DNA from: an uncultured Helicobacteraceae bacterium
GTDB taxonomy: Bacteria; Campylobacterota; Campylobacteria; Campylobacterales; SZUA-545
Length of the DNA: 64,000 bases
Direction: 5' to 3'
Assembly: GCA_963542625.1 (NCBI GenBank)
Contig: CAUTXO010000001.1
Location: 3,068 to 67,067, forward strand
Below the pieces are notes generated by a model. It was not told where the DNA came from. It was given only the letters and a program-made list of their open reading frames with translations, and ran no database searches. This document shows, one piece after another, positions 26,494 to 48,995 of this stretch. How positions within the stretch are numbered: the stretch's first letter is position 1; each line of letters opens with the position of its first letter. A program made the translations under genes and the position numbers.

Positions 26494-26524
26494 GATCTAA
26501 CGCGCCAAACGTCAAGATCCTGCG

Positions 26525-26754: not shown

Positions 26755-26767
26755 ACACGCCCGCGCG

Positions 26768-27508
26768 TTAAATCATATTCACGTTTAGGTCACTGGGGCT
26801 ATCAATCTCCACCCAGCCGCCGTCGATAAAAACGGGATAAACATCGCCAAAGCGATTGATGAGAAGCTGAAGAAAGCTCGTCATATACATATTTTCAAAG
26901 CTCTGGCCGTCAAAACTCGCGCGCCTATCAAGGCCATCGTAAAACTCCACCACACGTGCAAGCGCTACGCGGCGAATTTTAATAAGCCCGATGTATTGCC
27001 CCTGCACCTCATCAAGCGAGGCGGGCTTTTTGCCAAGCTCTATTATCTTGCCGCCTGAAATTTTCATCGTTTCTGCGTCGCTAAGCGGGTCTTGCATACG
27101 CGCGCGCCAAAGGGCAAGCCAAGATCTATCCACCACCACGCTCACATCGTGCGGCGCGGCAATGAGCGCCTGCAAAACCTCTGGGCGGTAGGCTATGTCC
27201 GTGTAAGAAATAATCAAGTCGTCCGTGTCAAAAAATTCGCGCGCGCAAAAAAGCGTGGCGACCATATTGCTTGACGCAAACGCCTTGTTTTCAAAAAATT
27301 CCACGCCGCCGCACCCCTGCAAATGCGCCCTTAGCACGTCAAATTTGTAGCCGCCAACGACGGCGATTTTATCCACCAAGGGCCCCGCTAAATCTAGCGC
27401 GCGGTCAATGAGCGGCTTGCCCTGATACGCCACCATACATTTGGGCTTGTCTAAAGTGAGCGGGCGCAAGCGTTTGCCCTGCCCTGCTGCTAGCAAAATA
27501 AGCTTCAC
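26768..27508 (-). CDS. Nucleotidyltransferase (Cj1416-like; candidate CTP:phosphoglutamine cytidylyltransferase)
   Basis: MKLILLAAGQGKRLRPLTLDKPKCMV NTP-transferase signature. GTG start in a GTGA overlap with the upstream gene. Synteny with the MeOPN cassette. Confidence 0.8.
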   Translation of the reverse strand: MKLILLAAGQGKRLRPLTLDKPKCMVAYQGKPLIDRALDLAGPLVDKIAVVGGYKFDVLRAHLQGCGGVEFFENKAFASSNMVATLFCAREFFDTDDLIISYTDIAYRPEVLQALIAAPHDVSVVVDRSWLALWRARMQDPLSDAETMKISGGKIIELGKKPASLDEVQGQYIGLIKIRRVALARVVEFYDGLDRRASFDGQSFENMYMTSFLQLLINRFGDVYPVFIDGGWVEIDSPSDLNVNMI

Positions 27509-28140
27509 GTATCGCCTTTAAAAAAATGTTTGATTAGGTTCATTTGCGCTTGACAAAAGGGCTCGTCGCGCTCGGTGTGCCAGTTTTGCGCAAAGATCCT
27601 AAGGCTTTTGTGCTCTATAGCTTTGATAACGCCCACGCTGTTTGTGGCGCTTGCGATTAGCTCGCTAGCCAAAGCTTCTATGCGGTAGTTGTGGTAAGAA
27701 TTGACGTCTCGTATGGCACTAAGATCTGCGGCGTATTTTGACGCGCCATTAACGCGCAAGCTGTGGCGCACGCGGACTTCGCCAGCCACTTTGGCAAAGC
27801 TGCTGCCAAAAAATTCGGCTACAAGCTGCATTCCGCGGCAAATGCCAAAAATGGGCAAGGCGTTTTTGATGGCAAAATCTAGCAAGGATCTTTCGTATTC
27901 ATCGCGCATTTTAGATAGCGGATCTTGCGGACTATTGACGCTAAGGTCGTTCCCGCCGCTAAGAAGCACGCCAGCTAGCCCCAAATCTGCAGCGTAGCAC
28001 GCGGGGTCTAGCTCGTATGGCAAAAGCACAGGCGTAAAACCAAGCGCGGCGATGAGCTTTGGCAAGCGAAGATCTAGGCAAGATCTTAGCTCGCCGTGCG
28101 CGGGATCTGTGGCTAGGCGTAAAGTTATGCCGATTTTCAC
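27505..28140 (-). CDS. Class-I glutamine amidotransferase / peptidase C26-like hydrolase (Cj1417-like)
   Basis: GGNDL...FGICRGMQL nucleophile elbow and a downstream H..E region. The preferred start is GTG at 28140 (GTGA overlap with the upstream stop). The longest ORF starts at 28170. Confidence 0.8.
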   Translation of the reverse strand: MKIGITLRLATDPAHGELRSCLDLRLPKLIAALGFTPVLLPYELDPACYAADLGLAGVLLSGGNDLSVNSPQDPLSKMRDEYERSLLDFAIKNALPIFGICRGMQLVAEFFGSSFAKVAGEVRVRHSLRVNGASKYAADLSAIRDVNSYHNYRIEALASELIASATNSVGVIKAIEHKSLRIFAQNWHTERDEPFCQAQMNLIKHFFKGDT

Positions 28141-30461
28141 GCTAGAGCCTTTACGCGCGCCCTTAGGCAATCAAGCTCTATAAGCTCTGCGCGTGCAAGC
28201 TCGGCAAAAAGCGGCTCGCCGCAACCAATCGCCGCGGGCAAGCCAAGCTCGGCGCAACGCACCGCCATATGCGAATTTGCTCCGCCATAGCAAGTGATTA
28301 GCCCCGCGATGCCCTTGCCAAACAAAAAGTCATAGCCCGGGTCGGCGTTTTTTATGCAAACGATTTTGCCCGCTAGATCTTGCTCGTAAGGCTCGCCGCG
28401 GCTTGCCGTAACGCTTGCTAGCCCGATGAAATTTGCCTTGCCGCCGCCAATAAAAAACTCGTAAATATCGCTCTGCTGCGTGATTAAAGACGGCAGCTGC
28501 AAGGCTTTGGTGAATTCAAAGGCGTCTTTATTTTGCTTGATGTTTGTTAAAAATAAATTATCCAAATTGTCAAATTCTAGCGTGCTGTAAAGGTTTTTAA
28601 TAACGGCAAAGTCTAAAAACGCCAAGTCTTGCGCGCCGATGCCGCTTTTTGCGCCAAGATCCCCCAGCAAGGAGATTACTTGGCTTAGGTGGCGCGTGAA
28701 TAAAAATTTAGAATACTCGCGCGCTTCTATGGCGTCTTTTATGAATTTTACAAGCCCCGCCGCGCTTGTTTTTAAGCCGTTTTCTACGATCTGCGCGGAG
28801 ATTTTTTCTAGCTGAGCCTGACTAAACGCAAACTCTTTTGTGTCTTTAAACGCGCCCCCCCCCCCGCTGCTACGCGCGCCGAAATATCTATCGTAGTCCT
28901 CGTCGTATCGTGGCGATGTGATGTCGTAAGTGTTGGGGCGCAAATGCCCGTAAAGCTTTAGGAATTCGCCCTTTTCTAGGCGCGCAAAGTCTTTATTCAT
29001 CGTCTTAGAAACGGTGTTTATGCTAGCCAAAAACTCCGCGCGCTCTGGTTCGCTCATAATCCCCTCACTCACAAAAGAATTGAGAATTTGCGTGGCAATA
29101 AACGCCGCGCGCGCCAGCCCCGCAAAGGCTAGCGTGCCATAGCGCTTGCAATCTTCTGTGAGCCAATAAATCGTATCAATAAGCGGCAGCCCAGCATTCA
29201 TCACCGATGAAAATTTTTCATCTAGCAAGGCGATTTTCTCAAGGTCGCGCTGAAAATGCCCGCTCGGGGCTAAAATGCTATTGGTTAGATCCAAAAGCGC
29301 AAACTCAATGCGCTTGATTTCATTGGCGCTAAAGCCTTTGGATCTTAGCCTTTCTAAGCGCCCCGAAATGCCGAAAAAATAGCAAGAAAAGACAATCTCA
29401 AACTCGACCTTATCGTGCAAATGCGCGTTTTGCGCCAGCTCGTCCAGATAATATTCAACGAGTTTTTCGGCAATGTTTTCGTGCAAATTCTTTGGCAAAA
29501 AGGAGTTAAACGAAACGCGCACGTCAATGTATGGAATGCCAAAAAAGCTCACAAGCAGCGGAAACGAGCGCAAATTTCTGTAGCCATAATTGTCGCGCTG
29601 ATACGCCCAAATTTCATCCGTGATGAATTCTTTGTAAAGGCTAAGCGCTAGTTTTTTAGGCCTTAGCCCGATGATTTCAGCGGGGTTCCAATCAGGCATA
29701 ACGCCAAAAATGCTCCTTTTGCCAAGCAATTTTGGGTGGGGGCTGCTTAGTTTTTCGATTTTTTTAGAAAGCTTAGATAGCGCTAGATCTAGGTTCAGCG
29801 CGCTTTTGCCACTAGAATGCGTAAATGCAAGCGGCCTAGCTTGCAAGATAAACACCCGCTCATCGCAAACGGCAAACTCAATGTCAAGGGCGGGATTATC
29901 TAAAACGCTTTCAAGCTCGCGCGCGGCGTCTAAGATCCGCGCTAGATCTTTAGCGGCTGGCCTGTGATCTTTATAGCAAACAAAGGTCTTAAGATCTGCC
30001 TTGCCGCCTGCTGTAACGCTTGTTGTATCGCCGTTTTGTGAGTAATTGACGGTGTAATACGGCGCGCCAGAGGCGCTGAGTGTAAAAATCACGCCGCTAG
30101 CGCCAACGCCACTAAGCATTTCTTGCACAAAAACTTCATCTTGCGCGCAAGGGTTTTTATACGATGCAAAAACGCGCTCGATTGCCGCCTTAAGATCCGC
30201 CGCATTTGGCGCAACGTTTAAAACGCTCTCAAACGCCCCCGCGTTGCTAAAATGCTCTGCGTCTTCATTCACAGACGATGAGCGCACAATAAGCGGAGCG
30301 GAAAACTTTGCCAGCACCGCGCCCACAATGCCTGCCGCGTCTTTTTGAAAATCCGCGTAAGAAAACACGGCAAGCTCTAGCACGGCGGATTTTTTCAGGC
30401 GCCCTTGTAAAAATAAAAGAGTTTGTGCTTTGGAGCGGGTCATACTTTTTTTGCCATCCAC
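28137..30461 (-). CDS. PEP-utilising-enzyme family kinase (Cj1418-like; candidate L-glutamine kinase)
   Basis: 774 aa. An N-terminal PPDK_N/ATP-grasp-like region and a C-terminal phosphohistidine swivel domain (ITCYGGANSHMAVRCAELGLPAAIG). An alternative ATG at 30443 gives an ATGA overlap with the upstream stop. Confidence 0.8.
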   Translation of the reverse strand: MDGKKSMTRSKAQTLLFLQGRLKKSAVLELAVFSYADFQKDAAGIVGAVLAKFSAPLIVRSSSVNEDAEHFSNAGAFESVLNVAPNAADLKAAIERVFASYKNPCAQDEVFVQEMLSGVGASGVIFTLSASGAPYYTVNYSQNGDTTSVTAGGKADLKTFVCYKDHRPAAKDLARILDAARELESVLDNPALDIEFAVCDERVFILQARPLAFTHSSGKSALNLDLALSKLSKKIEKLSSPHPKLLGKRSIFGVMPDWNPAEIIGLRPKKLALSLYKEFITDEIWAYQRDNYGYRNLRSFPLLVSFFGIPYIDVRVSFNSFLPKNLHENIAEKLVEYYLDELAQNAHLHDKVEFEIVFSCYFFGISGRLERLRSKGFSANEIKRIEFALLDLTNSILAPSGHFQRDLEKIALLDEKFSSVMNAGLPLIDTIYWLTEDCKRYGTLAFAGLARAAFIATQILNSFVSEGIMSEPERAEFLASINTVSKTMNKDFARLEKGEFLKLYGHLRPNTYDITSPRYDEDYDRYFGARSSGGGGAFKDTKEFAFSQAQLEKISAQIVENGLKTSAAGLVKFIKDAIEAREYSKFLFTRHLSQVISLLGDLGAKSGIGAQDLAFLDFAVIKNLYSTLEFDNLDNLFLTNIKQNKDAFEFTKALQLPSLITQQSDIYEFFIGGGKANFIGLASVTASRGEPYEQDLAGKIVCIKNADPGYDFLFGKGIAGLITCYGGANSHMAVRCAELGLPAAIGCGEPLFAELARAELIELDCLRARVKALA
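28855..28865 (-). repeat. Poly-G(11) homopolymer inside the glutamine-kinase-like gene
   Basis: Run of 11 C on the + strand. It encodes GGGG in ...RSSGGGGAFKD and is in frame (ON) here. Confidence 0.95.
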
Positions 30462-31267
30462 ATTCTCGTTGTGTATTTGATGTCAAACTCAAGCGGCAAC
30501 GAATGCTCTAGTTTGTAGGCGATCTTGCCAAAAAGCGCTCTGCCTTCTTCGGTGCTAAGATCCCAGTATGGGTTTTTCACGCTCTGCCAGGCTTTGATGT
30601 AATTCTCCCTGCTTTGGCGGAAGTAAAAATCCTGCTCTATAAAGCAAATCTCATCAAAAAGCGCGCGCTGCGTTAGCAAAAATGGCTTTTGATCTTCGCG
30701 CCTAACGCCGCCTGAATAGTTTGGCAATAAGTCCTTGATGACTTCTTGCGCCGTTTCTTGGATTGGGTCGTCAAGATCCCTGTGATTCCACATACAAGCA
30801 AAGCAGCCGCGGGGCTTTAAGATCCTAGCCGTTTCTTTAAGCGCTAGCTCTCTATCTACCACGTTAAAGCTGCTGCCAAAGGTTACAAGATCAAAGCTAG
30901 CATCATCTAGCGTGGTTTCTGTTGCGCCCGCTTTATACCAGGTGGCGTCTTTGCCCTTTGTTCTTTCTATGCCGATTTCTCTCATTGCGTCGTTTGGCTC
31001 AACGGCGCTAACCTTCAAGCCCCGCTCTAGGAGCATAAGCGTTAGGTTTGCCGTGCCAGCGCCTAGATCTGCGGCAACGCCGCGCGGTTTTTCTTGTGCG
31101 CCGTTTTGCGCCCCGCCTTTGCCGCCAAACGCCCATTCGCAAAGCAAGTCTATTGCCTTTGGGCTGTAATTTGGGCGGTAGGTGTAAAACGCCGCGTGCT
31201 TAGTGTAGTTCCATTCTGTTTTGTAGAGCGTGGATTGCCCCCCCCCCCGCTGCTGTAAATTTTTCAT
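30440..31267 (-). CDS. Class I SAM-dependent methyltransferase (Cj1419/Cj1420-like)
   Basis: ADLGAGTANLTLML SAM motif I and FDLVTFGSSFNV motif. Poly-G tract at codons 7-10. Confidence 0.8.
   Translation of the reverse strand: MKNLQQRGGGQSTLYKTEWNYTKHAAFYTYRPNYSPKAIDLLCEWAFGGKGGAQNGAQEKPRGVAADLGAGTANLTLMLLERGLKVSAVEPNDAMREIGIERTKGKDATWYKAGATETTLDDASFDLVTFGSSFNVVDRELALKETARILKPRGCFACMWNHRDLDDPIQETAQEVIKDLLPNYSGGVRREDQKPFLLTQRALFDEICFIEQDFYFRQSRENYIKAWQSVKNPYWDLSTEEGRALFGKIAYKLEHSLPLEFDIKYTTRMWMAKKV
31238..31248 (-). repeat. Poly-G(11) homopolymer at codons 7-10 of the methyltransferase gene
   Basis: Run of 11 C on the + strand. It encodes MKNLQQRGGGQ and is in frame (ON). Confidence 0.95.
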
Positions 31268-31270
31268 TTT

Positions 31271-32035
31271 TCATATCCTTTGCGCCGTCCACGCTCTGAT
31301 TTTATACGGGACGGAAATTATGTCAAGTCCTGAGATCTTGCCTTCTATCATCGCCAAAACTTCCTCCCATTTGTCTCCCGCTTGCGCTTGAATGTCATTG
31401 ACGCTTTTCCACGCGCCGATGTAGCGCTCGCGGCTCATATGCTCGGTGTAGTCAATCTCTGCAAAAAAGCAATTCTTAAAATGCCCGCTGCTCTCAATGA
31501 CCGCCGTCCAGTCCTTGGTGTTTTGCGCCCCGCTTGAAACGCGCTTTAGATCTGGCAGCATTGCGCGGATCTGCTCTTCTATCTCATAAAACACCGTCCC
31601 TTCTTGCAAGTTGCGCGGATTCCACATCGCCGTGAATGAGCCGCCAGGCTTTAAGATCCGCCTAAACTCAGCAAGCGCCGCGGGCGCGTCCGTCCAGTGG
31701 AATGAGCTTGCCATTATCACCCAGTCGTAAGACCCTGCTTCTAGCCCCGTGCTCTCAGCGCTTGCCTTATGCCACGCTGCCTTAGTGTTTTTCGTGTATT
31801 CCACGCCCTCGCTTCGCATTGCGTCGTTTGGCTCAACGGCGGTAACAGCTAGCCCAATATTGCAAAGCATTTTTGTGAGCTTGCCCGTGCCCGCACCAAC
31901 TTCTGCGACCGCAAAATCTCCCCTTGCCGCGCCCCGCTCATTCACGCACAAAAAGAGCTTTTCTAATAGCACACTGCTATACGCGGGGCGGTTGTGGTAG
32001 TCCTTTGCCACCTGTGTAAAATCGCCTTGTTTCAC
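31271..32035 (-). CDS. Class I SAM-dependent methyltransferase (Cj1419/Cj1420-like)
   Basis: AEVGAGTGKLTKML motif I and YDWVIMASSFHW. Paralogous to the neighbouring methyltransferase. GTGA overlap with the upstream gene. Confidence 0.8.
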   Translation of the reverse strand: MKQGDFTQVAKDYHNRPAYSSVLLEKLFLCVNERGAARGDFAVAEVGAGTGKLTKMLCNIGLAVTAVEPNDAMRSEGVEYTKNTKAAWHKASAESTGLEAGSYDWVIMASSFHWTDAPAALAEFRRILKPGGSFTAMWNPRNLQEGTVFYEIEEQIRAMLPDLKRVSSGAQNTKDWTAVIESSGHFKNCFFAEIDYTEHMSRERYIGAWKSVNDIQAQAGDKWEEVLAMIEGKISGLDIISVPYKIRAWTAQRI

Positions 32036-32553
32036 TGTTCTCCTATCAATTTAAGAATTTGCGCCGCCTTTAGATCTAGGGCGTCTTGCCTTGTGTTGTC
32101 TATTTTTAAGTGGCAGTTTTTTGGCATATCAAAAGCTAAATCCATTCCAACGACGTTTTTTACGCCGCCATTTGCCCCGCTAGAAAAGCCGCTGTATAGC
32201 CCCTTTTGGTCGCGCCGTTTGAGCTCATCAAGGGAGCATTCTATAAAGATCTCGTAATACTCACGGACGTTTTTGCGGTTTTGCTCGAAGATCTCGCCAT
32301 AAAGAGACATCGTGGCGCAAACGACGTTAATATCCTGCCCGACCAAAAACGCGCACATAGCCGAGATCCGCCTAGCGTTTAAGAGCCTATCGGCGGGCGT
32401 GTGGCCTAGGTCGTTACCCAAAATGGCGCGGAAGGAGTCGCCGTCTAAAAATACTGTGTTTGGGTGGCGCTTTTTTAGGCGCGCAAAAACTTCTTTGCCG
32501 ATGGTGGTTTTGCCGCTACCGCTTAGCCCTGTGATCCAAATGAGTTTAGCCAT
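32032..32553 (-). CDS. APS-kinase-fold kinase (CysC/Cj1415-like; candidate cytidine diphosphoramidate 3'-kinase)
   Basis: MAKLIWITGLSGSGKTTIGKEV P-loop at the chosen ATG (32553), then FLDGD..R. The longer ORF to 32775 only adds repeat-encoded low-complexity sequence. Confidence 0.85.
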   Translation of the reverse strand: MAKLIWITGLSGSGKTTIGKEVFARLKKRHPNTVFLDGDSFRAILGNDLGHTPADRLLNARRISAMCAFLVGQDINVVCATMSLYGEIFEQNRKNVREYYEIFIECSLDELKRRDQKGLYSGFSSGANGGVKNVVGMDLAFDMPKNCHLKIDNTRQDALDLKAAQILKLIGEQ

Positions 32554-33922
32554 TTTTACCGCTTTGTGCTGGTGTGCGCGTTTGCGCTGGGGCGCTAGAT
32601 CTTGTGCTAGATCTTGCGGCGTTAGATCCAGCAAAGTTAGCACCAGCACCCATAAATCCTGCGGCGTCTTGCGCGGTTTGTTCGCCTTGCGCTTCTTGCG
32701 CGCCGTTAGATCCCGCGTTAGATCTCGCGCCACTGGATCTGCCATTTGCTGCGCGGATCTCATCACGCAAGGCAAGCACGCTTTCTACCACCGCGCATTT
32801 TTTGGCTTTGTAACGCAAAATAAACACGATGTTTTTCACAAAGCGCCTAAAAATAATCATCGGCTTTAACACCCCTAAGCGCTCTAAAAACCTAAGCACC
32901 GGCACGGTTAAAAGATGCGAATACTCGTAAGAATAATGAAACGAAAGCAAGTTTAATAAATTCACGCGTGAGTCGCCTAAAAGCTCTGCGCGGCAAATGG
33001 CGCTTTGGCTCATATCCGCCTTGGTGCAAAGCTTGTAGCCAGCGGCAAGATAAAGCGGCGCAAACATAGTCTCAAAGGCAAGCTGTTCTTCTTGGCTTAG
33101 GGCATCGTAAGTGATTTCTTTTTGCACTTCAAGCATCAGGTCTCCTTTAGCAGATTCATACTCCCAAGCCTTACCCATAAAGGTAGCCTTTAGCAAAGAT
33201 GGCGTAAATTCCAAGCCGACACGCTCGCAAAGATCTTTCATACAAACGTCTGGATCCATATGCAAATCTTCTAACCTAAGCGTGATGTAATTAGCAAGAT
33301 CCTTATGCAAAAAGTAATTTTTCATCCCGAATTTATACGCTTCTAATAAGCCCAAAACATAATTTACAGCCGTATTTTTTAACTTTTGCTTTAGCCTGAT
33401 GTGAGAAACGATGGCATTACTCATATCCCTAAACATATGCACGATAAAAACGTTTTTAAAGATAGCCTCTCGTTCTTTTAAGTAGAGCTCGCTCGGGTTT
33501 GAATGAATGTGCTCTACTATGTGCGTTACGTTTGTAAAATTAAAGCAAGCGGCAATAGCTGCGTAAAAACTTTCTATGTAATTTTTAACGGATCTTTGCC
33601 TAGCCGCTGCTGGAATAAAAACGTCCTTAAACTTCTGCGTATCAAAACTTAAGGTGTTTTTGCTGTAAAAAAAGTTATTTGCCGTGCTGAATTTATTCAC
33701 GTAAGGGTCTCTAAAAAAGCTCTCGCAAAGCATATCAAGCGACAAATCCATACGCGATGAAAAAAACTCATAACTATCAAAAAAACCGCTTGGCACAAAG
33801 GCAACGTTTTTATGCCCGTCTAGCATACTTTGAAGCAAGCTAGATCCGCTCCTGCTATGCACGTAAATATAGATGATTGTAAGATGTTCTAAACTTTTCA
33901 TTTTATCTGCAATAAATTCCAA
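32546..33922 (-). CDS. Sulfotransferase-fold protein (candidate phosphoramidate transferase) with low-complexity C-terminal tail
   Basis: IYVHSRSGSSLLQSMLDGH resembles the 5'-phosphosulfate-binding loop of bacterial sulfotransferases. An alternative ATG at 33901 gives an ATGA overlap. The last 70 aa or so are A/S/G/Q-rich. It overlaps the kinase start by 8 nt. Confidence 0.6.
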   Translation of the reverse strand: MEFIADKMKSLEHLTIIYIYVHSRSGSSLLQSMLDGHKNVAFVPSGFFDSYEFFSSRMDLSLDMLCESFFRDPYVNKFSTANNFFYSKNTLSFDTQKFKDVFIPAAARQRSVKNYIESFYAAIAACFNFTNVTHIVEHIHSNPSELYLKEREAIFKNVFIVHMFRDMSNAIVSHIRLKQKLKNTAVNYVLGLLEAYKFGMKNYFLHKDLANYITLRLEDLHMDPDVCMKDLCERVGLEFTPSLLKATFMGKAWEYESAKGDLMLEVQKEITYDALSQEEQLAFETMFAPLYLAAGYKLCTKADMSQSAICRAELLGDSRVNLLNLLSFHYSYEYSHLLTVPVLRFLERLGVLKPMIIFRRFVKNIVFILRYKAKKCAVVESVLALRDEIRAANGRSSGARSNAGSNGAQEAQGEQTAQDAAGFMGAGANFAGSNAARSSTRSSAPAQTRTPAQSGKNG

Positions 33923-41294: not shown

Positions 41295-42336
41295 GCCTTA
41301 GCGAGCTTCTAAAATCTTTCATTTTTTTACCATTCCAAATACTTCCAAAACTTTCTTTCATAATATTTCCCATCACGATATGAAAACAGCGCGTCATAAT
41401 AATCACATCACCGTTAGCCATAAACTGCGCCTGCTCCCAAGGGACGCGACAGTGATCCCTTGAAAATATTTTTTTAGGATCCGTAAAATACATTTTTGCA
41501 TCTTCAGCACTATTAAAATAAGGAGTTTGTATAAGATGAACCCCCCCCCCTTGCTTAATAATTTTTGCCGCTTTCTGAAGATTTTCATACATCAGATCAT
41601 AATCAATTGTTTCAGGGAAAATCGAGCTAATGCACGTTGGTGTGGCGCGCGCTATATCGCCAAAGTATTTGTTGTGTGTATTTGCCATATCCTGCGTAAC
41701 AAAATTCAAATGAGAAAACGCAACTTGCGTTGGGTGGATCTTAATAACTTCACGCGCAAAATCTTCCAAATGCAAGTAATTCCAATCCGACACAACGTGA
41801 TTTATCAGCCTTTCTTTTATGCCAAGATCCTTAGCCCTTAAAAAACCTTCAACGGCATTGGCGTAAGATTTGCCACCCCCGCCTCTTATTTTGTCGTGAA
41901 TCTCTGCTGTGCCGTCTAAAGAGATAGAAAGCGTATCAAGCCCGGCTGAAGCTAGGTCGTCTATTTTTTTAGGAAGCAAAAGCCCGTTTGTACCAACTTG
42001 CGTTTTGCAACCCTTTTTCTTGGCGTATTCAATTGCCGCTGGCAAATGCTTCCAAAGCAAGGGCTCGGTAGAAATAATGGCAATCACCGGGCGCACGGGG
42101 GCTAGCTCATCCACAATGCGCTTAAAAACTTCAAGCGGCATATCCATATTCGCCGAAAGCATGTTAAGCGTAAATTGTGTATCCGTTTGGTTTTGCCCCA
42201 CATCGCACATCTTGCAAAACAAGTTACAACGCGAATTGACTATTATATAAACCATCTTAGGCCACAAAGCGCTACTGCCTAAAAGGTGGCGGTTTATCTT
42301 TAGCCTAACGTATGGCACTAAATTTTTTAATTGCAT
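41248..42336 (-). CDS. Radical SAM enzyme with C-terminal Cys-rich (SPASM/twitch-like) region
   Basis: IVNSRCNLFCKMCDV CX3CX2C motif and C-terminal Cys residues (DHCRVPW...TRCF...PACTRCCG). The preferred ATG at 42336 (MQLKNLV...) overlaps the upstream stop (TGATG). The longest ORF extends to 42381. Confidence 0.8.
   Translation of the reverse strand: MQLKNLVPYVRLKINRHLLGSSALWPKMVYIIVNSRCNLFCKMCDVGQNQTDTQFTLNMLSANMDMPLEVFKRIVDELAPVRPVIAIISTEPLLWKHLPAAIEYAKKKGCKTQVGTNGLLLPKKIDDLASAGLDTLSISLDGTAEIHDKIRGGGGKSYANAVEGFLRAKDLGIKERLINHVVSDWNYLHLEDFAREVIKIHPTQVAFSHLNFVTQDMANTHNKYFGDIARATPTCISSIFPETIDYDLMYENLQKAAKIIKQGGGVHLIQTPYFNSAEDAKMYFTDPKKIFSRDHCRVPWEQAQFMANGDVIIMTRCFHIVMGNIMKESFGSIWNGKKMKDFRSSLRRVGMFPACTRCCGVL
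41541..41550 (-). repeat. Poly-G(10) homopolymer in the radical SAM gene
   Basis: Run of 10 C on the + strand. It encodes KQGGGVH. Confidence 0.95.
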
Positions 42337-43508
42337 CAGGCAAGCTCTTTTTTCAAAATAACAAAATCGCCGTCTTTCCACTGCGTGCCATTAAAAGATC
42401 CGTTAACAATAAGCTCAAAACTATCCCTTAAATACCCCGCCATACTTTCCGTGCTGTGCTTTTTGTAGACAAGATCTTGCGCCGCTGCTGCAACGCCTTC
42501 GTAATCTTTTATATTGCGTAATAGATCTTTAATCTGCCTTATTGGATCCCCAAGATCTAGCTCCACATAATGCACGTTTTCTTTAAAGCCCATATCAGAA
42601 AATCCATAAGGCGCCACACAAAGCAAAAGCGATTTGTTAGCCGGGATCTCAAAAAACTTCCTAATAGCGGTTTTGTATTGGCTACCATCGGTAAAGGAGA
42701 TCTTAGACGTCGCCAAATGCTCTTCAAAAATAAAGTTATAAAGCTTCATCGTTACGATGTTTGAATACGGCTTAAGCCCCAACCTATTAAAAAGCGAATA
42801 CGCAAAGTTATGGATCCTGCGCGGCATAGTGATCTCTTTTGCTTGCTTAACCTGCTCTCTTAACGCCCGGCGCTGATAATAAAGCACGCCCTCTACGGAA
42901 AAATCGTATTTTCTGTGCTCTAGGCAAGAGTATCTAAATTCACTAGGTGCAATGGTATGGTAAAAAGAAATTGTCCTGTGCTTATACCTATTTACAAACT
43001 CGTAATAATCGTCATTTAAAAGCCCTACGTGCTTTTCTTTGTCTATGCCGGGGAGATCTTTCATCGCAACTAAATATTGCGTCCCCATACCTATATAATA
43101 AGCGCCCTGTTCTTCGTAGGCCTTCATAATGTACGTCGGAAAATTGTGAAAGTCAAACATTTCCTTAAAGACGAGGTTTGTATTTTTCAAAGACGCTATA
43201 TCCCTAGCAATAGCCGGCAAATAATAAATGTGTTCTATTGGGTAGTGAATAAACCTATATTTTCTGTATTCGTTTAGGTATTTTGCGTTGATTGGTTGGG
43301 TGGAAAAATACGGAAAGCAAATATCATCAACGACAATATCAAAGCCACCGTGCCTTTCTATGTAAGCGTTCAAGCCCTCTTTTAGCGTTTTTTCATCGGA
43401 AAACCCTGGTCCAAAAAAATAAGCGTTTAATTTTCTAAAGATGGTTAAATAGTTTCTATCTGTAGGGTTTAAATACTCATTGTAAGCACCGATGTAAAGT
43501 ATCCTCAC
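42336..43508 (-). CDS. Hypothetical protein, possibly a CgeB-like glycosyltransferase-family domain
   Basis: 390 aa. The C-terminal half (IRKFFEIPANKSLLLC...VHYVELD...IKDLL...) loosely resembles Glyco_trans_1_2/CgeB-type domains. GTGA overlap with the upstream stop. Confidence 0.45.
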   Translation of the reverse strand: MRILYIGAYNEYLNPTDRNYLTIFRKLNAYFFGPGFSDEKTLKEGLNAYIERHGGFDIVVDDICFPYFSTQPINAKYLNEYRKYRFIHYPIEHIYYLPAIARDIASLKNTNLVFKEMFDFHNFPTYIMKAYEEQGAYYIGMGTQYLVAMKDLPGIDKEKHVGLLNDDYYEFVNRYKHRTISFYHTIAPSEFRYSCLEHRKYDFSVEGVLYYQRRALREQVKQAKEITMPRRIHNFAYSLFNRLGLKPYSNIVTMKLYNFIFEEHLATSKISFTDGSQYKTAIRKFFEIPANKSLLLCVAPYGFSDMGFKENVHYVELDLGDPIRQIKDLLRNIKDYEGVAAAAQDLVYKKHSTESMAGYLRDSFELIVNGSFNGTQWKDGDFVILKKELA

Positions 43509-44176
43509 AAAAATCCTTCGTTAAAGATCTTATCAATCACGCTAAGTCCGCCTAAAAACTCGCTTGTATTCACCTGCGCGTAAGCTTGTGGCGCAAAGTT
43601 TTGCGCGAGCAATTCTATCTTTGATTCTCTGAATTTTGCCGCGTCTTGGTAGCCACCCGCACCCCCGCCATACATATACGCCCCGCACCCCGCCGCGCGC
43701 ACTAGGTCAATTAGCAATTCATTAGAAGAAGAGCAAAAGCCAAAGCTTGAAGCAAACAAGATCTTGCCGGCTGTCTTAATCCCAAAGCGCTCACAAATGG
43801 CAAGAATGGCCTGCACGTTATACTCCGCCACGTTTTCTTTGGCGCATTCAACTAGCCCAAAGATAAAATCCGCGTGCTCCTTAAAATGCGGCGCGCGCGC
43901 GTAATTTGCCTTGAGCGTTTTAACAGCCTTTGCGCGCCAAGCTTCACCGGCAAAAAGCGTCTCGTTTATTTTCCAAAGCCCACGCGGGCGCACAATTGGC
44001 GCGGTTAGCCAAGCCTTGCGCCCGGCAATGTTTATCGCCACGCGGTTTGTGTATGTGCCGCTGCCCTTTTTCTCAAATTGCACGCTGTCTAAAAACACAA
44101 AGCGGTCGGCGCGGCGAATCTTGTCAAAAAACCCAAGCCAAGGGAAAAAGTTTGGCTGATGAATGGCGCAAATCAT
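43505..44176 (-). CDS. WbqC-family protein
   Basis: MICAIHQPNFFPWLGFFDKI...FVFLDSVQF is the characteristic WbqC N-terminal signature. ATGA overlap. Confidence 0.75.
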   Translation of the reverse strand: MICAIHQPNFFPWLGFFDKIRRADRFVFLDSVQFEKKGSGTYTNRVAINIAGRKAWLTAPIVRPRGLWKINETLFAGEAWRAKAVKTLKANYARAPHFKEHADFIFGLVECAKENVAEYNVQAILAICERFGIKTAGKILFASSFGFCSSSNELLIDLVRAAGCGAYMYGGGAGGYQDAAKFRESKIELLAQNFAPQAYAQVNTSEFLGGLSVIDKIFNEGFL

Positions 44177-44694
44177 CTAAAAAGGCTCATAATCGCAAGA
44201 TCTCTAAGCTCGCCGTCTATAAAAGCGTGGCGCCTTAGCAAGCCCTCGCGCACAAAGCCAAGCCGCTCGTATAATCTCGCCGCGCGCGTATTAAAGTCAA
44301 AAACATACAGGTAAATTTTTTGCAAGTCTAGCGCGCCAAAGCCGTAAGAGATAAGCTTGCCTAAGGCGCGGCTGCCGTAGCCTTTGGACGTGTAGGCAAG
44401 ATCTATGCGCGCGCGTAGCTCGGCGGTTTTGCTTACAAGATCTATGCCGTATAGCCCACAAGATCCAATAAGCTCATCGCCCAAAAAAATGCCAAAAAAC
44501 ACCGTGCTTGCATCGCGCCTTAGGGCGTCAAACCACTCCGCGTGGCTTTTAAAATCCACCGGCTTATAGCGGGCGCTAAAGCGCACAAGGTCAGCGTCGT
44601 TAATAAGCTCAAAAAGCCGCGCAAGATCTTGTTCGCCCCGCACCGCGCCAAGCCTTAGTGCGCTTTGGTTGGCGCCGCTGCTTAGCGCTTCCAC
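44173..44694 (-). CDS. GNAT-family N-acetyltransferase
   Basis: About 170 aa. Acetyl-CoA-binding-type segment (YTSKGYGSRALGKLISYGF) and a C-terminal ...RLYERLGFVREG. Confidence 0.75.
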   Translation of the reverse strand: MEALSSGANQSALRLGAVRGEQDLARLFELINDADLVRFSARYKPVDFKSHAEWFDALRRDASTVFFGIFLGDELIGSCGLYGIDLVSKTAELRARIDLAYTSKGYGSRALGKLISYGFGALDLQKIYLYVFDFNTRAARLYERLGFVREGLLRRHAFIDGELRDLAIMSLFR

Positions 44695-45413
44695 GTGTCT
44701 TCCAAGCGGATCTTATAATCCGCGCGCGTGGCGGCGTATCTGTGATTTGGCGCAAACGCCGCGTCTAGCCCCGCTAAATACGAGCTAAGCATTTTGTTAA
44801 GCGGTTGTTCGTAGGTGTTGCCCCCCCCCCCGGAGAGATGAAACGGGTGGAAAAGCACCTGTATAAGCCTTGTGCGCGATGTTTGCAAAAAGCTTTCTGG
44901 GTCTTTGTTTCTGAAAGAAAAGCAAGAGTCGCTCATATAAATTTCATCGCTGAAAATCCGGCTGTCATACGCGCTAAGCAGCCCCGTGTTTTCCAAATAA
45001 ATATTATGAATACTGGGGCTGTGCATACTAAAAGACGCCACGCGCTCTTGCGTTAGATCTTCTAGCATTTGGCACTCTTTTTGTAAAAGCGCGGTTAGCT
45101 CAAGCGGATCTGCGGCGTTATAAACAAGCGGGTCAAAGTGCAAGCCAACCTCTGCGCGGCTTGCCATACGGCGCAAAAGCCCGCGTGAATGCGTGCTAAA
45201 GGCGTTGTAAAGTGGCGAGGTCAAAAGCACGTAATAAGTGGCGCGAATCCCAAGATCTACCTCACGCTCAAAGAGTTCGTAGGCAATATCTATGGACGCG
45301 TCTATGTCGTGGCGCAATAAGATCCCGTGCTTTAGGCTTTGAAAGTCTTTGATTTGGTGCGTTTCATACTTAGCGATTGTCTCTAAGTAGATCTCTTGTT
45401 TAAACATATTCAT
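44682..45413 (-). CDS. Polysaccharide-deacetylase-like protein (tentative)
   Basis: GILLRHDIDASIDIA...GIRATYYVL resembles the N-terminal metal-binding region of divergent CE4-like deacetylases found in O-antigen loci. Weak. Confidence 0.5.
   Translation of the reverse strand: MNMFKQEIYLETIAKYETHQIKDFQSLKHGILLRHDIDASIDIAYELFEREVDLGIRATYYVLLTSPLYNAFSTHSRGLLRRMASRAEVGLHFDPLVYNAADPLELTALLQKECQMLEDLTQERVASFSMHSPSIHNIYLENTGLLSAYDSRIFSDEIYMSDSCFSFRNKDPESFLQTSRTRLIQVLFHPFHLSGGGGNTYEQPLNKMLSSYLAGLDAAFAPNHRYAATRADYKIRLEDTWKR
44821..44831 (-). repeat. Poly-G(11) homopolymer in the deacetylase-like gene
   Basis: Run of 11 C on the + strand. It encodes LSGGGGNT. Confidence 0.95.
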
Positions 45414-45443
45414 AGCTATCCTTAAAAACGCAAATTGTAACGC

Positions 45444-45980
45444 TTAGGGGTTTAAAGGCGCTAGGCGTCTTAGCTCTTTTGCTGGCGTGCCAGCGTAAAT
45501 GCCAAAGGGGGCTAGATCTTTAGTAACCACGCTGCCCGCGCCCACAATGCTTGACTTGCCGATTGTTACACCGGGCAAAATAACGGCATTTGCGCCTATC
45601 CAAACGTCGTCTTCTATGACGACCTTTTTGGCTGCAATCGTGCCCTTTGTGTGAAGCGCGATGATGTTGCAAAGCTCAGAATTATTCGGCGATGAAGAGC
45701 AAATCACGGTAACGCCCGGCGCAATCGCCACGCGCGCGCCAATTTTAAGCAGCGGCTCGTAATCATCAGAGACGATGAAGTTTTGATTAATCACGCTGCC
45801 ATCTCCGATGAAAACGCCCGTCATTGCAAAAAAGATCTTGCGCGTTTTGTTGTCCGGGTGATTTGCGCCCAGCCAGCGCAAGAGTTTGTCCGGCAAAGCG
45901 CGCGCGGTTTTTCTGATTTTTTCATCGCTCATATCCGCGTAATCAAACATTAGCTCGTTAATTATTTTGCTGTTCGTCAT
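45444..45980 (-). CDS. Hexapeptide-repeat (LbH) acyl/acetyltransferase
   Basis: Repeated [LIV]G-x4 hexapeptide pattern (IGARVAIAPGVTVI..., IEDDVWIGANAVILPGVTIGKSSIVGAGSVV). Confidence 0.8.
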   Translation of the reverse strand: MTNSKIINELMFDYADMSDEKIRKTARALPDKLLRWLGANHPDNKTRKIFFAMTGVFIGDGSVINQNFIVSDDYEPLLKIGARVAIAPGVTVICSSSPNNSELCNIIALHTKGTIAAKKVVIEDDVWIGANAVILPGVTIGKSSIVGAGSVVTKDLAPFGIYAGTPAKELRRLAPLNP

Positions 45981-46989
45981 TTTTATCTCCTTTTAGCTCC
46001 CCAAATGGTAGGACGTAAAAGCCTGAATATTCTTTCAAAAGCTCGTCTTTTGTGGCGTGCAAAACGTCCTTGTTTGCTAGGCTGATGAAGTATTTATACT
46101 CCCGCTGGCTTGCCGCAAATTTTTTCTTAAACCTATACACGCCGTCTTGGCCAAGCCACGTCCCGCCCCAATTCCACCATTCATAGCCAGCGCTTGCTGC
46201 CTTTTGCATTGCGGTAAAAATCACAAGCGGCAAGGCTTGAAGGCTTCTAAATTCTTCCACCACAGCTGGCGTGAAATACTCAACCGTTTTGTTGTAGTAA
46301 AAAACAAGCAAGGCCGCCACCGGCTCGCCGTTTAGATCTGCTGTAAAGATCTCGTAATCCGCTGTGGGCGTAAAAAACTCCGGCAAACGCGCAAAAAACT
46401 CCCGAGTTTTTGTCTGCCCACCAAGCTTTGAGATGTTTTGCTGGTGCGTTTGGTATAAAAAATCGCTAGCTGAATTATCCACCGCCACTCTCACGCCGGC
46501 GTTTTGCGCCTTTTTAATGTTGCGCCTTGCGCTTGCGTCAAGCCCTGCTAAGATCTCATCCGGCTTTGCAAGAGGCGTGAATTGCCCTATGCGCTTGTCC
46601 GTGTAGTCAAAGCGCGCAAGATCTTGCAAGGCGCTATCAAGCGGGTTTTGAATATACACGCTGCACGCCGCACGCGCGCTTAAGTCTTCGTAGTGCGCTT
46701 TTAACGCCTCAAAGGCTTGCTCGGCTTTGCTAAAGATCCCGCCGTTGCTGCCAAAATACGCAAGCGAATTAATCACGCGCCCGTATTTGCCACCCTTTGC
46801 CACAAGCGGCAAGGCGCCTTGTATCTCTCCGCCATCGTCTAGGGCTAGCGCATAAAGGCTTTGCGCGCCTAAAAATTCTTCCAAAAACCGCTTGTATTTC
46901 ACGCTATGGTAAAAAAGGCTGTGCGAAAACTCGTGCAAAAATCGCTCGTATCTTTCAAAAAGCGGCTCATCAAGCGTTACAATTTTCAT
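45958..46989 (-). CDS. FemAB-like / GNAT-fold aminoacyl- or acyl-transferase
   Basis: About 343 aa from the ATG at 46989 (ATGA overlap with the upstream stop). The C-terminal part (NGEPVAALLVFYYNKTVEYF...YRFKKKF) resembles FemAB/lipid II glycyltransferase-like families seen in EPS loci. Confidence 0.55.
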   Translation of the reverse strand: MKIVTLDEPLFERYERFLHEFSHSLFYHSVKYKRFLEEFLGAQSLYALALDDGGEIQGALPLVAKGGKYGRVINSLAYFGSNGGIFSKAEQAFEALKAHYEDLSARAACSVYIQNPLDSALQDLARFDYTDKRIGQFTPLAKPDEILAGLDASARRNIKKAQNAGVRVAVDNSASDFLYQTHQQNISKLGGQTKTREFFARLPEFFTPTADYEIFTADLNGEPVAALLVFYYNKTVEYFTPAVVEEFRSLQALPLVIFTAMQKAASAGYEWWNWGGTWLGQDGVYRFKKKFAASQREYKYFISLANKDVLHATKDELLKEYSGFYVLPFGELKGDKNDEQQNN

Positions 46990-48995
46990 AAGATCCCTTG
47001 CGCTGCATAGGTTTGCAACCATTTTTCAAAGTTAATCAAGCTCCAAATAAAAAGCCGCCTGTTTTCCTTGCCGTCAAAGTGGCGCTGGGCGATTTCGCGC
47101 ACTTTTTTAGGGTCTAAAAACTCATACATCGCCGCGTTTTTATTGCCGATGACAAGGCGCACAAAATCCACGCTCTGCCCCCTAAACCACGTGCTATCCG
47201 GGCTTGAAAAGCCCTGCTTTACACCCGCTGCGATGTCTTGCGGAATGTAATCTTTTACCGCTTGGCGCAAGATCTTCTTGCCGTCGTTTGTCTTTTGAAA
47301 GTAGGTGCTAGCCTTAGAAAGGCTGTTTTCATCAATTTTTACCACTTCCTGCAAATTAGCTAGCTTAAAATTAACGGGCAAGCTGCAAGCAAAATCCACA
47401 AGATCATTGTCTAAAAACGGCACGCGCGTTTCTAGCCCGTGCGCCATAGAAAGCTTGTCTTCAACCGTCAGCAAGCCGCGCAAAAAGGTCTTTGCTTCAA
47501 AGTAAAGAGAATGGTTGATGTAGTCCTGCGGCGAGTTATTTTTAACGTTTTTCTTAAAGACGTTTCTAAAGATCTCAATCGTCTGCACGTGCGCCACATC
47601 AGATCTAATAGGCTCAAAGAGTTCTTTTAGGTCGCGGTTTGGTAGCAATCTTTGCCAAAAAACGTAGTATTTGTTGATGTAATCGTCAAAATTCGTGCTG
47701 GCTGCGGCGCGGTAATACCGCCACGGATACCCGCCAAAGAGTTCGTCGCCGCCAATGCCGCTTAGCGCCACCTTGACAAAACGGCTAGCAAGCTTTGAGG
47801 CGTAGAAGTTTGGGTAGCTCTGCCCAATGCGCGGCTCTTCTAAATGATACGCAAAAAGCGGCAAGCAACGCTGCATATCGCCAGATTTTAGCACCATCTC
47901 GTAATGCTCGGTTTGGAAGATATAGCTAAGGCGCTCCGCGCGCGCGCGCTCGTCAAAGCTTAGCTCTATCCCGCTTGCGCTGCTTAGATCAAAGCCCACT
48001 GTAAAGGTTTTTAAAAGTGGCAATTTTGACGCCGCCACAGCCGTTATGCTGCCGCTATCTATGCCGCCTGATAAAAAACTGCCGATCTCAACGTCGCTAG
48101 CAAGCTGGCGCGAAACGGCTTGCGCAAAGAGTTCTTTTAGCTTTTTGGTAGCGGATACTTCATCTAGCGAGCCATCTTGAAAGAAGTTAAAATCCCAATA
48201 AAGGCTTTTTTTAAAGCTCCTTTTGTTTAGATCTAGCTCAATAAAAGATCCTGGCTCTAGGAGCCTAATCTCAGCAAAAAACGTCCTATCTGTAAAGATA
48301 TTTTGAAAGGTAAAATACTCATAAAACGCCGCCTTATCAAGGGAAAAGCTAAGATCTTTATATTCTAAAATCGCCTTATTTTCGCTCGCAAAAATGAAAA
48401 ACCCGTCTTTAAAGTAGTAGTAAAGCGGCTTAATGCCGTAGCGGTCACGCGCGATGAAAAACTTCTTTTTGCGGTTATCCCACAGCGCAAAGGCAAACAT
48501 ACCGTTAAATTCCTTGACGCAAGCCGTGCCGTAGTGAATGTAGGCGTATAAAATCACTTCTGTATCGCTTGAAGTTTTGAACTTATACCCAAGCGCGGCG
48601 AGCCTTGCGCGAAGATCTTGGTAGTTGTAGATCTCGCCGTTAAAAACAATCCAAACTTCGCGGGAGATGTCGCTCATTGGCTGATGCGCGGCGGGGCTAA
48701 GATCTATAATGCTAAGGCGTCTGTGCGCCATCATAAGGTCGTAATCGTGGAAGTTCAGCTCAGCCTGCGCACTCTCGTCTTCTTCGCACATCAAAAGCGG
48801 GGAAATGGCTTTAAAATTTCTGTCCGTTAGGTTTTGGTAAAACGAAACGCCAGGCGCGGATTTTGTCCCCGTGTGAAAATACAAATACCCAGCGTCGTCC
48901 CTGCCCCTGTGAGCGATTTTATCCGCCATAGGCCTTAATAAAGCCGGATTTACAAAGGGCTTATCCAAGCTTAACGCACCGACAATTCCGCACAT
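46986..48995 (-). CDS. Asparagine synthase (glutamine-hydrolysing) family amidotransferase; first gene of the operon
   Basis: MCGIVG Ntn nucleophile, HRRLSIIDLS and PP-loop FLSGGIDSGSITAVA. 669 aa. Confidence 0.85.
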   Translation of the reverse strand: MCGIVGALSLDKPFVNPALLRPMADKIAHRGRDDAGYLYFHTGTKSAPGVSFYQNLTDRNFKAISPLLMCEEDESAQAELNFHDYDLMMAHRRLSIIDLSPAAHQPMSDISREVWIVFNGEIYNYQDLRARLAALGYKFKTSSDTEVILYAYIHYGTACVKEFNGMFAFALWDNRKKKFFIARDRYGIKPLYYYFKDGFFIFASENKAILEYKDLSFSLDKAAFYEYFTFQNIFTDRTFFAEIRLLEPGSFIELDLNKRSFKKSLYWDFNFFQDGSLDEVSATKKLKELFAQAVSRQLASDVEIGSFLSGGIDSGSITAVAASKLPLLKTFTVGFDLSSASGIELSFDERARAERLSYIFQTEHYEMVLKSGDMQRCLPLFAYHLEEPRIGQSYPNFYASKLASRFVKVALSGIGGDELFGGYPWRYYRAAASTNFDDYINKYYVFWQRLLPNRDLKELFEPIRSDVAHVQTIEIFRNVFKKNVKNNSPQDYINHSLYFEAKTFLRGLLTVEDKLSMAHGLETRVPFLDNDLVDFACSLPVNFKLANLQEVVKIDENSLSKASTYFQKTNDGKKILRQAVKDYIPQDIAAGVKQGFSSPDSTWFRGQSVDFVRLVIGNKNAAMYEFLDPKKVREIAQRHFDGKENRRLFIWSLINFEKWLQTYAAQGIL

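Follow-up and report, generated by a model that had tools for sequence, protein, structure and literature searches.

A predicted glycan-modification island with seven poly-G tracts, and a phosphoramidate cassette coupled to a sulfotransferase-fold gene, in an uncultured Campylobacterales bacterium

O-methyl phosphoramidate (MeOPN) is a rare P-N modification, which acts as a phage receptor and affects serum resistance in Campylobacter jejuni. To our knowledge, the pathway to its donor has been solved and the transfer step has never been reconstituted. The C. jejuni proteins Cj1415-1418 make 'CDP-phosphoramidate 3'-phosphate' (CDP, cytidine diphosphate), i.e., the likely donor, and the function of Cj1419/1420 is unassigned (PMC11800397). 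MeOPN is known on capsule and not on flagellin (PMC3907429), and some Campylobacter species carry cj1416-18 without orthologues of cj1421/22 and may use dissimilar transferases (van Alphen et al., PMC3907429). The poly-G tracts of Campylobacter drive phase variation, and phase-variable genes, cj1420, cj1421, and cj1422 among them, cluster in capsule, lipooligosaccharide, and flagellar glycan loci, the tracts being most numerous in the flagellar glycosylation loci (PMC8355987). Here, a related island is described in a stretch of 64,000 nucleotides (the window) of contig CAUTXO010000001.1 from an uncultured Helicobacteraceae bacterium. The island occupies 26768-48995 and consists of 21 open reading frames (ORFs), all on the minus strand, in agreement with an original prediction made from the sequence. 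It is rather probable that the island is a Campylobacter-style, strain- and phase-variable contingency locus, the products of which decorate, in the cytoplasm, a surface glycan, whereas genes elsewhere would encode its assembly and its export by an ABC-transporter-type system.

Six genes at 26768-32553 match the C. jejuni MeOPN genes and appear to make up a complete MeOPN-type phosphoramidate cassette; an MeOPN cassette had been predicted here. The first, kin173 (32032-32553), encodes an APS-kinase-fold (APS, adenosine 5'-phosphosulfate), Cj1415-like protein and candidate cytidine diphosphoramidate kinase. It scored 113 bits for APS_kinase and 186 bits for PRK05541 (cutoff 127), and 116 bits against the apsK equivalog, i.e., under the cutoff of 138.7. 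The next two genes, MT254 (31271-32035; Methyltransf_11, 61 bits) and MT275 (30440-31267; Methyltransf_11, 54 bits), encode the pair of S-adenosylmethionine (SAM) methyltransferases, placed at Cj1419/Cj1420 by position and domain, without a reference-sequence orthology comparison. PPDK768 (28137-30443) is a Cj1418-like L-glutamine kinase with PPDK_N and PEP-utilizers domains (PRK05849, 946 bits, cutoff 501). It is followed by C26_211 (27505-28140), a Cj1417-like putative gamma-glutamyl-CDP-amidate hydrolase with NF045546 as its best match (Peptidase_C26, 84 bits), and by NTP246 (26768-27508), a Cj1416-like candidate phosphoglutamine cytidylyltransferase which matched only the generic NTP_transf_3 (60 bits). 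The gene order is that of C. jejuni cj1420-cj1416, except that the kinase is shifted to the front.

At the head of this cassette stands ST451 (32546-33901), left unnamed in the original prediction. Its product is a sulfotransferase-fold protein of the type using 3'-phosphoadenosine 5'-phosphosulfate (PAPS) and a candidate phosphoramidate transferase (Sulfotransfer_3, 38-39 bits, cutoff 27). The 5'-phosphosulfate (PSB) loop, HSRSGSS, and the 3'-PB motif, FRD......S, align with those of solved sulfotransferases. A family profile, comprising ST451 and 39 distant relatives, matched the structures of CurM/OLS and tyrosylprotein sulfotransferases at E values of 1e-24 to 1e-26. The protein is a near-orphan, as among 1.84 billion representatives nine matched below 1e-10 and only two, of the same species, below 1e-30. 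A metagenome scan with the sulfotransferase (ST) alignment gave no matches. Among 20 looked-up matches no C. jejuni protein was found and most were nameless, and the literature search did not find the fold of Cj1421/22. One distant homologue, P0257 (25% identity), adjoins ATP sulfurylase and APS kinase in its contig (L011), i.e., a real sulfation locus.

The start of kin173 was corrected to the ATG at 32553, because the Pfam match begins at residue 77 of the longest ORF. With this start, the kinase gene overlaps the ST451 stop by 8 nt (junction ATGGCTAA), a junction which had not been listed before, and the 8-nt overlap is also kept in an ST allele of 42% identity. The 3' end of ST451, approximately 360 nt (32546-32903), is high in GC. 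Residues 385-451 form a low-complexity tail rich in Ala, Gly, Ser, and Asn, and its 67 codons, the last of the gene, consist of AGATCT-containing repeats. The tail DNA (32546-32775) is open in two frames and also lengthens the longest kinase ORF. Its repeats resemble the AGATCT repeats of the intergenic region upstream of the island, and the tail looks like a former intergenic spacer read as protein.

The cassette is widespread outside Campylobacter, as at least 571 relatives of PPDK768 with 45-54% identity were found in metagenomes. Eighty of these loci (L013-L092) were fetched and annotated locally, and one of them (L024) was also scanned with Pfam. The hydrolase gene lies directly after the Cj1418-like gene in 67 of the 80 loci, and the cytidylyltransferase gene follows the hydrolase in 63. 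The kinase is present in 34 loci, and methyltransferase (MT) homologues stand beside the cassette in approximately 40. An ORF of the ST family was found in the flank of nine loci, adjacent and co-directional in six, and two of them (L024 and L026) have exactly the order of the window, i.e., ST, kinase, MT, glutamine kinase, hydrolase, and cytidylyltransferase. The presence of ST was associated with that of the kinase (7/9 vs 27/71, Fisher p = 0.028). In L024, the homologous cassette is surrounded by NDP-sugar (nucleoside diphosphate sugar) enzymes. Beside the cassette, other unannotated gene families are recurrent (in 21, 15, and 11 loci), and these may represent alternative transferases. In another locus (L034:1859-13536), the full cassette occurs together with two genes of the sulfotransferase family, one AsnB604-like gene, and one resembling wecB (380 bits), a combination which echoes the central block of the island in an unrelated contig.

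Seven coding-strand poly-G tracts of 10-11 nt were found in the island. They lie in PPDK768 (28855-28865, in a variable linker), MT275 (31238-31248), wecB (36773-36783, near the 3' end), the C5-epimerase-like gene (39619-39628, near the 3' end), MT280 (40776-40786), the radical SAM gene (41541-41550), and the gene of a 243-aa orphan (44821-44831). All seven are in frame, i.e., ON, and a slip of +/-1 truncates every protein. The tract of MT275 starts 20 nt past its ATG, and a slip there leaves 22-38 aa. The other 42 kb of the window contains a single G/C run of at least 7, a G9 at 61318-61326. This run is intergenic and lies between ligA and an AAA-ATPase gene, which are convergent. From shuffles, 0.23 runs of at least 9 were expected. 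Intragenic G/C homopolymers of at least 8 nt are enriched over the background, as is characteristic of contingency loci. The tracts point to Campylobacter-type phase variation, in which the seven genes would actually switch.

A conspecific contig from an independent assembly, L006 (Logan SRR33858005), carries the island at the same site with 97% nucleotide identity over 26605-43431. In its comparison with the window, four tracts were equal in length, one was different (G11 vs G10) with flanking indels, and that of the radical SAM gene was interrupted (GGTGGGGGAGGGG). The convergent intergenic space between thiE and the island (26494-26767) differs from that of L006 by approximately 90 nt in length, which is probably variation in repeat copies.

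In composition, the island is a mosaic of three parts, of which the central block is low in GC. GC at third codon positions (GC3) ranges over 0.53-0.62 in both the phosphoramidate module and the six distal genes, and over 0.46-0.61 in core genes, vs 0.42-0.47 in the nine central genes (ST451 to unk390). The original prediction had likened the locus to an accessory island and proposed to compare GC content and codon usage with the flanks. This comparison set apart the central block by its low GC, and not the outer modules, which are core-like in GC3 and codon usage. On these values, a recent horizontal acquisition of the island as a whole was rejected. The density of AGATCT, which is equal in all three modules and in core genes, also speaks against it.

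A second conspecific contig, L007, places a recombination breakpoint at 32880-32930, i.e., at about 32903, where the conserved MeOPN module meets a strain-variable block. It shows 92% nucleotide identity to the window from 32903 down to 31404 and no nucleotide similarity above. The kinase and MT254 are 98.8% and 98.6% identical in amino acids, vs 42% for the ST allele. GC across the L007 breakpoint is 0.378 vs 0.518. The gene preceding the L007 ST is not AsnB544, and judged by sequence it is the apparent C-terminus of a GT1-type glycosyltransferase. The central block is thus strain-variable and is replaced in L007, and the breakpoint falls within the 3' end of ST451. Strain-variable content beside conserved genes, a trait of capsule variable region 2, is therefore seen here in L007. 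The breakpoint, the seven poly-G tracts, and the kinase-coupled ST gene had all been missed in the original prediction.

The genes are tightly packed. When the junctions were rebuilt with the start codons favoured by the original prediction, 18 of the 20 gene junctions overlapped. All ten 4-nt overlaps that it had listed were present, i.e., six ATGA (46989, 44176, 37713, 35532, 33901, and 30443) and four GTGA (43508, 32035, 28140, and 27508), as were its two 1-nt overlaps, TGATG at 42336 and TAATG at 40452. The remaining six overlaps are 8, 13, 20, 23, 29, and 47 nt long. The only gaps are the two already reported, 30 nt (45414-45443), with an own Shine-Dalgarno sequence before 45413, and 3 nt (31268-31270). 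Significant Pfam domains were found in 19 of the 21 products, which are therefore real genes.

Promoter-like and terminator-like matches across the island were not above shuffles. The upstream intergenic region (48996-49832, 838 bp) is rich in AGATCT repeats (22 copies) and contains a terminator-like hairpin at 49530-49512. This hairpin probably ends the slt unit, and the island promoter is presumed to be located below it. One transcript across the 21 genes is plausible from this arrangement.

The island is flanked by clpB and thiE on one side and by slt, yggT, flgH, and valS on the other, and its last gene, NTP246, is convergent with thiE. The earlier placement between thiE and slt was therefore right. 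The flagellar genes flgH, flgG, and fliP are present in the window. The neighbours are clpB/thiE and slt/yggT/flgH and not kpsMTEDF/kpsCS. Domain scans of the island and of the whole 64-kb window detected no transporter, Wzy/WaaL, polymerase, ligase, or kps domains, which bears out the claim that export, polymerase, and ligase functions are missing. Membrane-type hydrophobic spans were absent from the 21 products, an internal segment of the C5-epimerase-like barrel being the only exception. The island also has no UDP-sugar (uridine diphosphate sugar) dehydrogenase, despite four enzymes of uronic-acid-modifying types. This strengthens the case for dependence on genes elsewhere, and the predicted reliance on outside assembly and export machinery agrees with it.

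Of the six distal genes, AsnB669 (46986-48995) is the first gene of the island and encodes a glutamine-dependent AsnB-type amidotransferase with Cys2 present (Asn_synthase, 293 bits; GATase_7, 163 bits; TIGR01536, 435 bits). The protein shows 61% identity to Arcobacter butzleri enzymes within a lipopolysaccharide (LPS)/O-antigen cluster, and we take it to be comparable to WbpS of the Pseudomonas aeruginosa O6 O-antigen/LPS uronamide pathway. A FemAB-like acyl/aminoacyl transferase of 343 aa (45958-46989; FemAB, 58 bits; Acetyltransf_6, 53 bits) and a left-handed beta-helix (LbH, hexapeptide) acetyltransferase of 178 aa (45444-45980; Hexapep, 51 bits) come next. The best NCBIfam matches of the LbH protein were sugar/antibiotic O-acetyltransferases, all under their cutoffs. 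The 243-aa orphan (44682-45413) had been called deacetylase-like, and this was not supported, since no Pfam, NCBIfam, or PDB match was obtained even at E = 10; its AlphaFold2 (AF2) single-sequence model was unusable (pLDDT 47.5). The distal genes end with a PseH-like GNAT N-acetyltransferase of 173 aa (44173-44694; Acetyltransf_3, 67 bits; TIGR03585 PseH, 72.6 bits, cutoff 93.1) and a WbqC-family protein of 223 aa (43505-44176; Pfam WbqC, 170 bits). A literature search turned up no characterised member of the WbqC family.

The low-GC central block begins with unk390 (42336-43508), an orphan of 390 aa with the lowest GC of the island (0.39; GC3 0.44). It had been proposed as a possible glycosyltransferase (GT), and the searches gave no significant family, a Glyco_trans_1_2 hint at E = 0.1, and no PDB match up to E = 10, so the assignment is unverified. 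Its AF2 single-sequence model was also unusable (pLDDT 35). Then follow a radical SAM/SPASM enzyme, rSAM, of 362 aa (41248-42336; Radical_SAM, 82 bits; SPASM, 42 bits), and MT280, a class I SAM methyltransferase of 280 aa (40452-41294; Methyltransf_11, 97 bits). MT280 is the only methyltransferase outside the MeOPN pair, where three had been counted. C5epi318 (39496-40452; C5-epim_C, 105 bits) is a D-glucuronyl C5-epimerase-like protein of 318 aa and matched heparan-sulfate Glce in the PDB (4pw2/6hzz, E 1e-14).

AsnB604 (37710-39524) is a second glutamine-dependent AsnB-type amidotransferase, with Cys2 present in an MCGIAG N-terminus (Asn_synthase, 209 bits; GATase_7, 142 bits; TIGR01536, 419 bits). 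WecB (36649-37713), a non-hydrolysing UDP-GlcNAc (UDP-N-acetylglucosamine) 2-epimerase of 354 aa, scored 302 bits for TIGR00236 (cutoff 210) and 337 bits for Epimerase_2, against 60 bits for the NeuC model. The sole clear GT of the island is a GT4-family protein of 379 aa (35529-36668; Glyco_transf_4, 34 bits, cutoff 28.5). The last gene before ST451 is AsnB544 (33898-35532), encoding an AsnB-like synthetase (Asn_synthase, 227 bits) with a partial match to the GATase domain. This protein starts with MNLTT, i.e., without the N-terminal Cys nucleophile, and keeps the PP-loop SGGVDSS, and it probably forms amides without glutamine hydrolysis. Domain and model scores thus uphold most of the content that had been predicted, i.e., the three AsnB-family enzymes (669, 604, and 544 aa), wecB, the C5-epimerase-like, radical SAM, WbqC, GNAT, LbH, and FemAB-like proteins, and one GT4.

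From these genes, a mechanism can be proposed. In module C (26768-32553), a PAPS-like phosphoramidate donor would be made by the C. jejuni pathway. The Cj1418-like kinase would phosphorylate L-glutamine, the Cj1416-like transferase would add cytidine monophosphate (CMP), the Cj1417-like hydrolase would release cytidine diphosphoramidate, and the Cj1415-like kinase would add the 3'-phosphate, with MT254 and MT275 as candidates for the addition of the O-methyl group. ST451, translationally coupled to the kinase, is predicted to bind this 3'-phosphonucleotide donor as a PAPS-like molecule and to transfer phosphoramidate to a sugar hydroxyl of the presumed acceptor glycan. Module B (32546-43508), low in GC and strain-variable, may supply UDP-ManNAc (UDP-N-acetylmannosamine) by WecB and one glycosyl transfer by GT4. 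It may further make uronic-acid or other changes by the Glce-like C5-epimerase, two AsnB-type enzymes (one without glutaminase), the methyltransferase, the radical SAM enzyme, and an orphan. Module A (43505-48995) would add amide and acyl decorations by the WbpS-like AsnB and the FemAB-like, LbH, GNAT, WbqC, and orphan proteins. Because every enzyme is soluble, they would act on nucleotide sugars or on a polymer that has not yet left the cytoplasmic face, which is consistent with a kps or Wzm/Wzt (ABC-transporter-type) pathway elsewhere. By slipped-strand mispairing at the seven G10-11 tracts, seven genes could be turned on and off independently, in as many as 128 combinations, and the variable block could be exchanged between strains by recombination within the 3' end of ST451.

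For the transfer step, it is a serious possibility, short of being probable, that PAPS-type sulfotransferase-fold enzymes were recruited as phosphoramidate transferases, and that ST-kinase-MT(-MT)-glutamine kinase-hydrolase-cytidylyltransferase is a portable seven-gene module. This module is proposed to use 3'-phospho-cytidine diphosphoramidate as sulfotransferases use PAPS, and to range well beyond Campylobacter, including environmental bacteria and the deep Campylobacterales lineage of this host. An ST-fold gene which is coupled to the donor 3'-kinase, and which reappears beside the cassette in unrelated bacteria with no sulfate-activation gene alongside, is a testable candidate for the transfer step. 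If the proposal is true, the final step in the attachment of (Me)OPN, as yet uncharacterised, would be identified for lineages without cj1421/cj1422, and the ST family would exemplify a cofactor-analogue enzyme family which changed its transferred group.

Several points weigh against a contingency locus with a phosphoramidate-transferring ST451. The tract lengths come from consensus assemblies, which are blind to within-population switching, and two island genes (243 and 390 aa) remain orphans. The 64-kb window has no kps, wzm/wzt, wzx/wzy, or waaL gene, so the tie to a particular surface polymer is one that we infer. The match of C26_211 to NF045546 (E 1.7e-40, 139 bits at full length) is below the curated cutoff of 250. 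In L006 (9537-10891), a 1-nt deletion splits the ST gene into 108 and 296 aa, and the gene is either dispensable, i.e., a pseudogene in that strain, or affected by an assembly error; phase variation was rejected as an explanation of this frameshift, as the site is not in a homopolymer. ST genes accompany only approximately 11% of the sampled cassettes, and most lineages must therefore use another transferase. ST451 itself is possibly a true sulfotransferase with PAPS made elsewhere. The main rival for the ST gene is that ST451 is an ordinary PAPS-dependent glycan sulfotransferase with kin173 doubling as APS kinase, and that sulfate is added besides or instead of phosphoramidate. The membership of ST451 in Sulfotransfer_3, the bona fide sulfotransferases among its relatives, the ATP sulfurylase and APS kinase at the locus of the P0257 homologue, and the matches of kin173 to APS kinases in the PDB all fit sulfation. 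However, ATP sulfurylase was found neither in the window nor in the 80 cassette loci, the nine ST-bearing ones included. The ST gene also overlaps and sits within the phosphoramidate cassette, in an order conserved in unrelated contigs, and the end product of the cassette is itself a PAPS analogue (PMC11800397). Ordinary sulfation is held to be unlikely, and phosphoramidate transfer is preferred for ST451. It is likewise doubtful that the 21 genes are three juxtaposed modules of different origin, independently transcribed and co-directional by chance. The GC3 mosaic, the breakpoint within the ST gene, and the 30-nt gap with its Shine-Dalgarno sequence before 45413 would suit such modules, and so would a sigma-70-like match (11/12) at 31326-31299, just upstream of MT275, which counts against a single transcript. 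However, the 18 overlapping junctions of 20 include both module boundaries (GTGA at 43508 and ATGGCTAA at 32553), the promoter-like and terminator-like counts are no higher than in shuffles, and intergenic space of regulatory length exists only upstream of 48995.

As to the target, the main rival to a surface glycan exported from the cytoplasm is a protein-linked glycan, e.g., flagellin O-glycans, built and attached in the cytoplasm, for which exporter, polymerase, and ligase would be unneeded. All 21 proteins are indeed soluble, poly-G tracts peak in the flagellar glycosylation loci of Campylobacter (PMC8355987), the best NCBIfam match of the GNAT protein is PseH, and flgH, flgG, and fliP lie within the window. 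However, the GNAT score is under the PseH cutoff, WecB is non-hydrolysing and not NeuC/LegG, and no nonulosonic-acid synthase, Maf/DUF115, PseB/C/F/G/I, or Leg genes were found among the 21 proteins. The Glce-like C5-epimerase and the AsnB uronamide enzymes point to uronic acids of a polysaccharide, flagellar genes are scattered in this bacterial order, and MeOPN is known from capsule, not flagellin (PMC3907429). Modification of flagellin glycans is accordingly regarded as quite improbable. A small-molecule natural product, e.g., a phosphoramidate-bearing glycoside or nucleoside, would also explain the lack of polymer machinery and the soluble tailoring set of rSAM/SPASM, AsnB without glutaminase, FemAB-like, methyltransferase, and GNAT proteins. 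However, the cluster has no exporter, resistance gene, or regulator, phase variation by poly-G tracts and low-GC blocks that differ between strains are typical of surface-antigen loci, homologous cassettes stand among NDP-sugar enzymes, and relatives of AsnB669 are found in LPS clusters. Such a product is very improbable, and decoration of a surface glycan remains the preferred reading.

The host belongs to a deep, undescribed Campylobacterales lineage. Its ClpB (23221-25803) shows at most 66% identity to anything outside its own metagenome-assembled genome (MAG). The top named matches were Campylobacterales MAGs, Hydrogenimonas, Nitratiruptor, and Nautiliaceae, with no Campylobacter in the top 120. 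The nearest relatives by ClpB (65-66%) have unrelated gene neighbourhoods with no common order, and the contig scan gave relatives of Slt at 27-46% identity only. GC of the window is approximately 48%. Its commonest hexamer is AGATCT, with 233 copies vs approximately 17 expected (13.7-fold), which may be an uptake sequence, a repeat element, or related to methylation. The extended consensus is (A/T)AGATCT(T/A). The hexamer clusters in intergenic DNA, is densest at 49076-49811 and 5172-5569, and also occurs at 1-6 per kb in coding DNA. Six palindromic hexamers, ACATGT, ACTAGT, AGTACT, CCATGG, CGATCG, and CGTACG, are absent, each with 14-17 copies expected, and GCGCGC is 12-fold over-represented. 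This bias suggests strong restriction-modification pressure. The Rfam scan gave two tRNAs only, and the plasmid megablast gave no matches.

Among known systems, exopolysaccharide (EPS) loci of the XrtA/PEP-CTERM type share AsnB and FemAB-like proteins with the island at family level only. Membership in the PEP-CTERM/exosortase group, to which the original prediction had linked its AsnB, FemAB, and deacetylase combination, was rejected. The AsnB proteins scored 424, 337, and 235 against the cutoff of 816.9 for TIGR03108, the FemAB-like protein scored 106 against 260 for TIGR03019, no recognisable deacetylase is present, and the window scans gave no TIGR03006 deacetylase match, exosortase, or PEP-CTERM proteins. 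The similarity of C5epi318 to vertebrate Glce (E 1e-14) lies in the catalytic C-terminal domain, but the protein has 318 aa vs approximately 600 aa, no N-terminal domains, and a bacterial context. In the LPS cluster of Arcobacter butzleri (L004), the 61% identical AsnB669 homologue is followed by an LbH acetyltransferase, as in the island. That cluster has UDP-sugar dehydrogenases, aminotransferases, glycosyltransferases, and an ABC transporter, whereas the island is reported without these. With the PAPS-dependent CurM/OLS and tyrosylprotein sulfotransferases, ST451 shares the fold family, the RSG(S/T) loop, and the R-D...S motif. It differs by its identity of only approximately 20-25%, by an extra C-terminal region of approximately 130 residues, and by the repeat-encoded tail. 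Unlike sulfation loci, it has no ATP sulfurylase nearby and is embedded in a phosphoramidate-donor cassette.

The nearest system is variable region 2 of the C. jejuni capsule locus (cj1415c-cj1422c), which has Cj1415 and Cj1418, two methyltransferases, and Cj1416 and Cj1417, to which the island has candidate homologues, in nearly the same order. Both loci have an adjoining cytoplasmic decoration enzyme, a similar density of poly-G tracts, a variable low-GC block joined to the conserved cassette, and tight packing. The C. jejuni locus is flanked by kpsMTEDF/kpsCS, whereas the island is not and no transport gene was detected in the 64 kb. The kinase is the last gene in C. jejuni, but in the island it is the first and overlaps the sulfotransferase-fold gene. 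The G tracts of the island are in biosynthetic genes (Cj1418-like, methyltransferase, WecB, and others), not in a transferase gene as in C. jejuni. As the host is far outside Campylobacter (ClpB, at most 66%), poly-G switching of the Campylobacter style and the architecture of a cassette plus a variable block appear to occur far from Campylobacter and detached from export genes.

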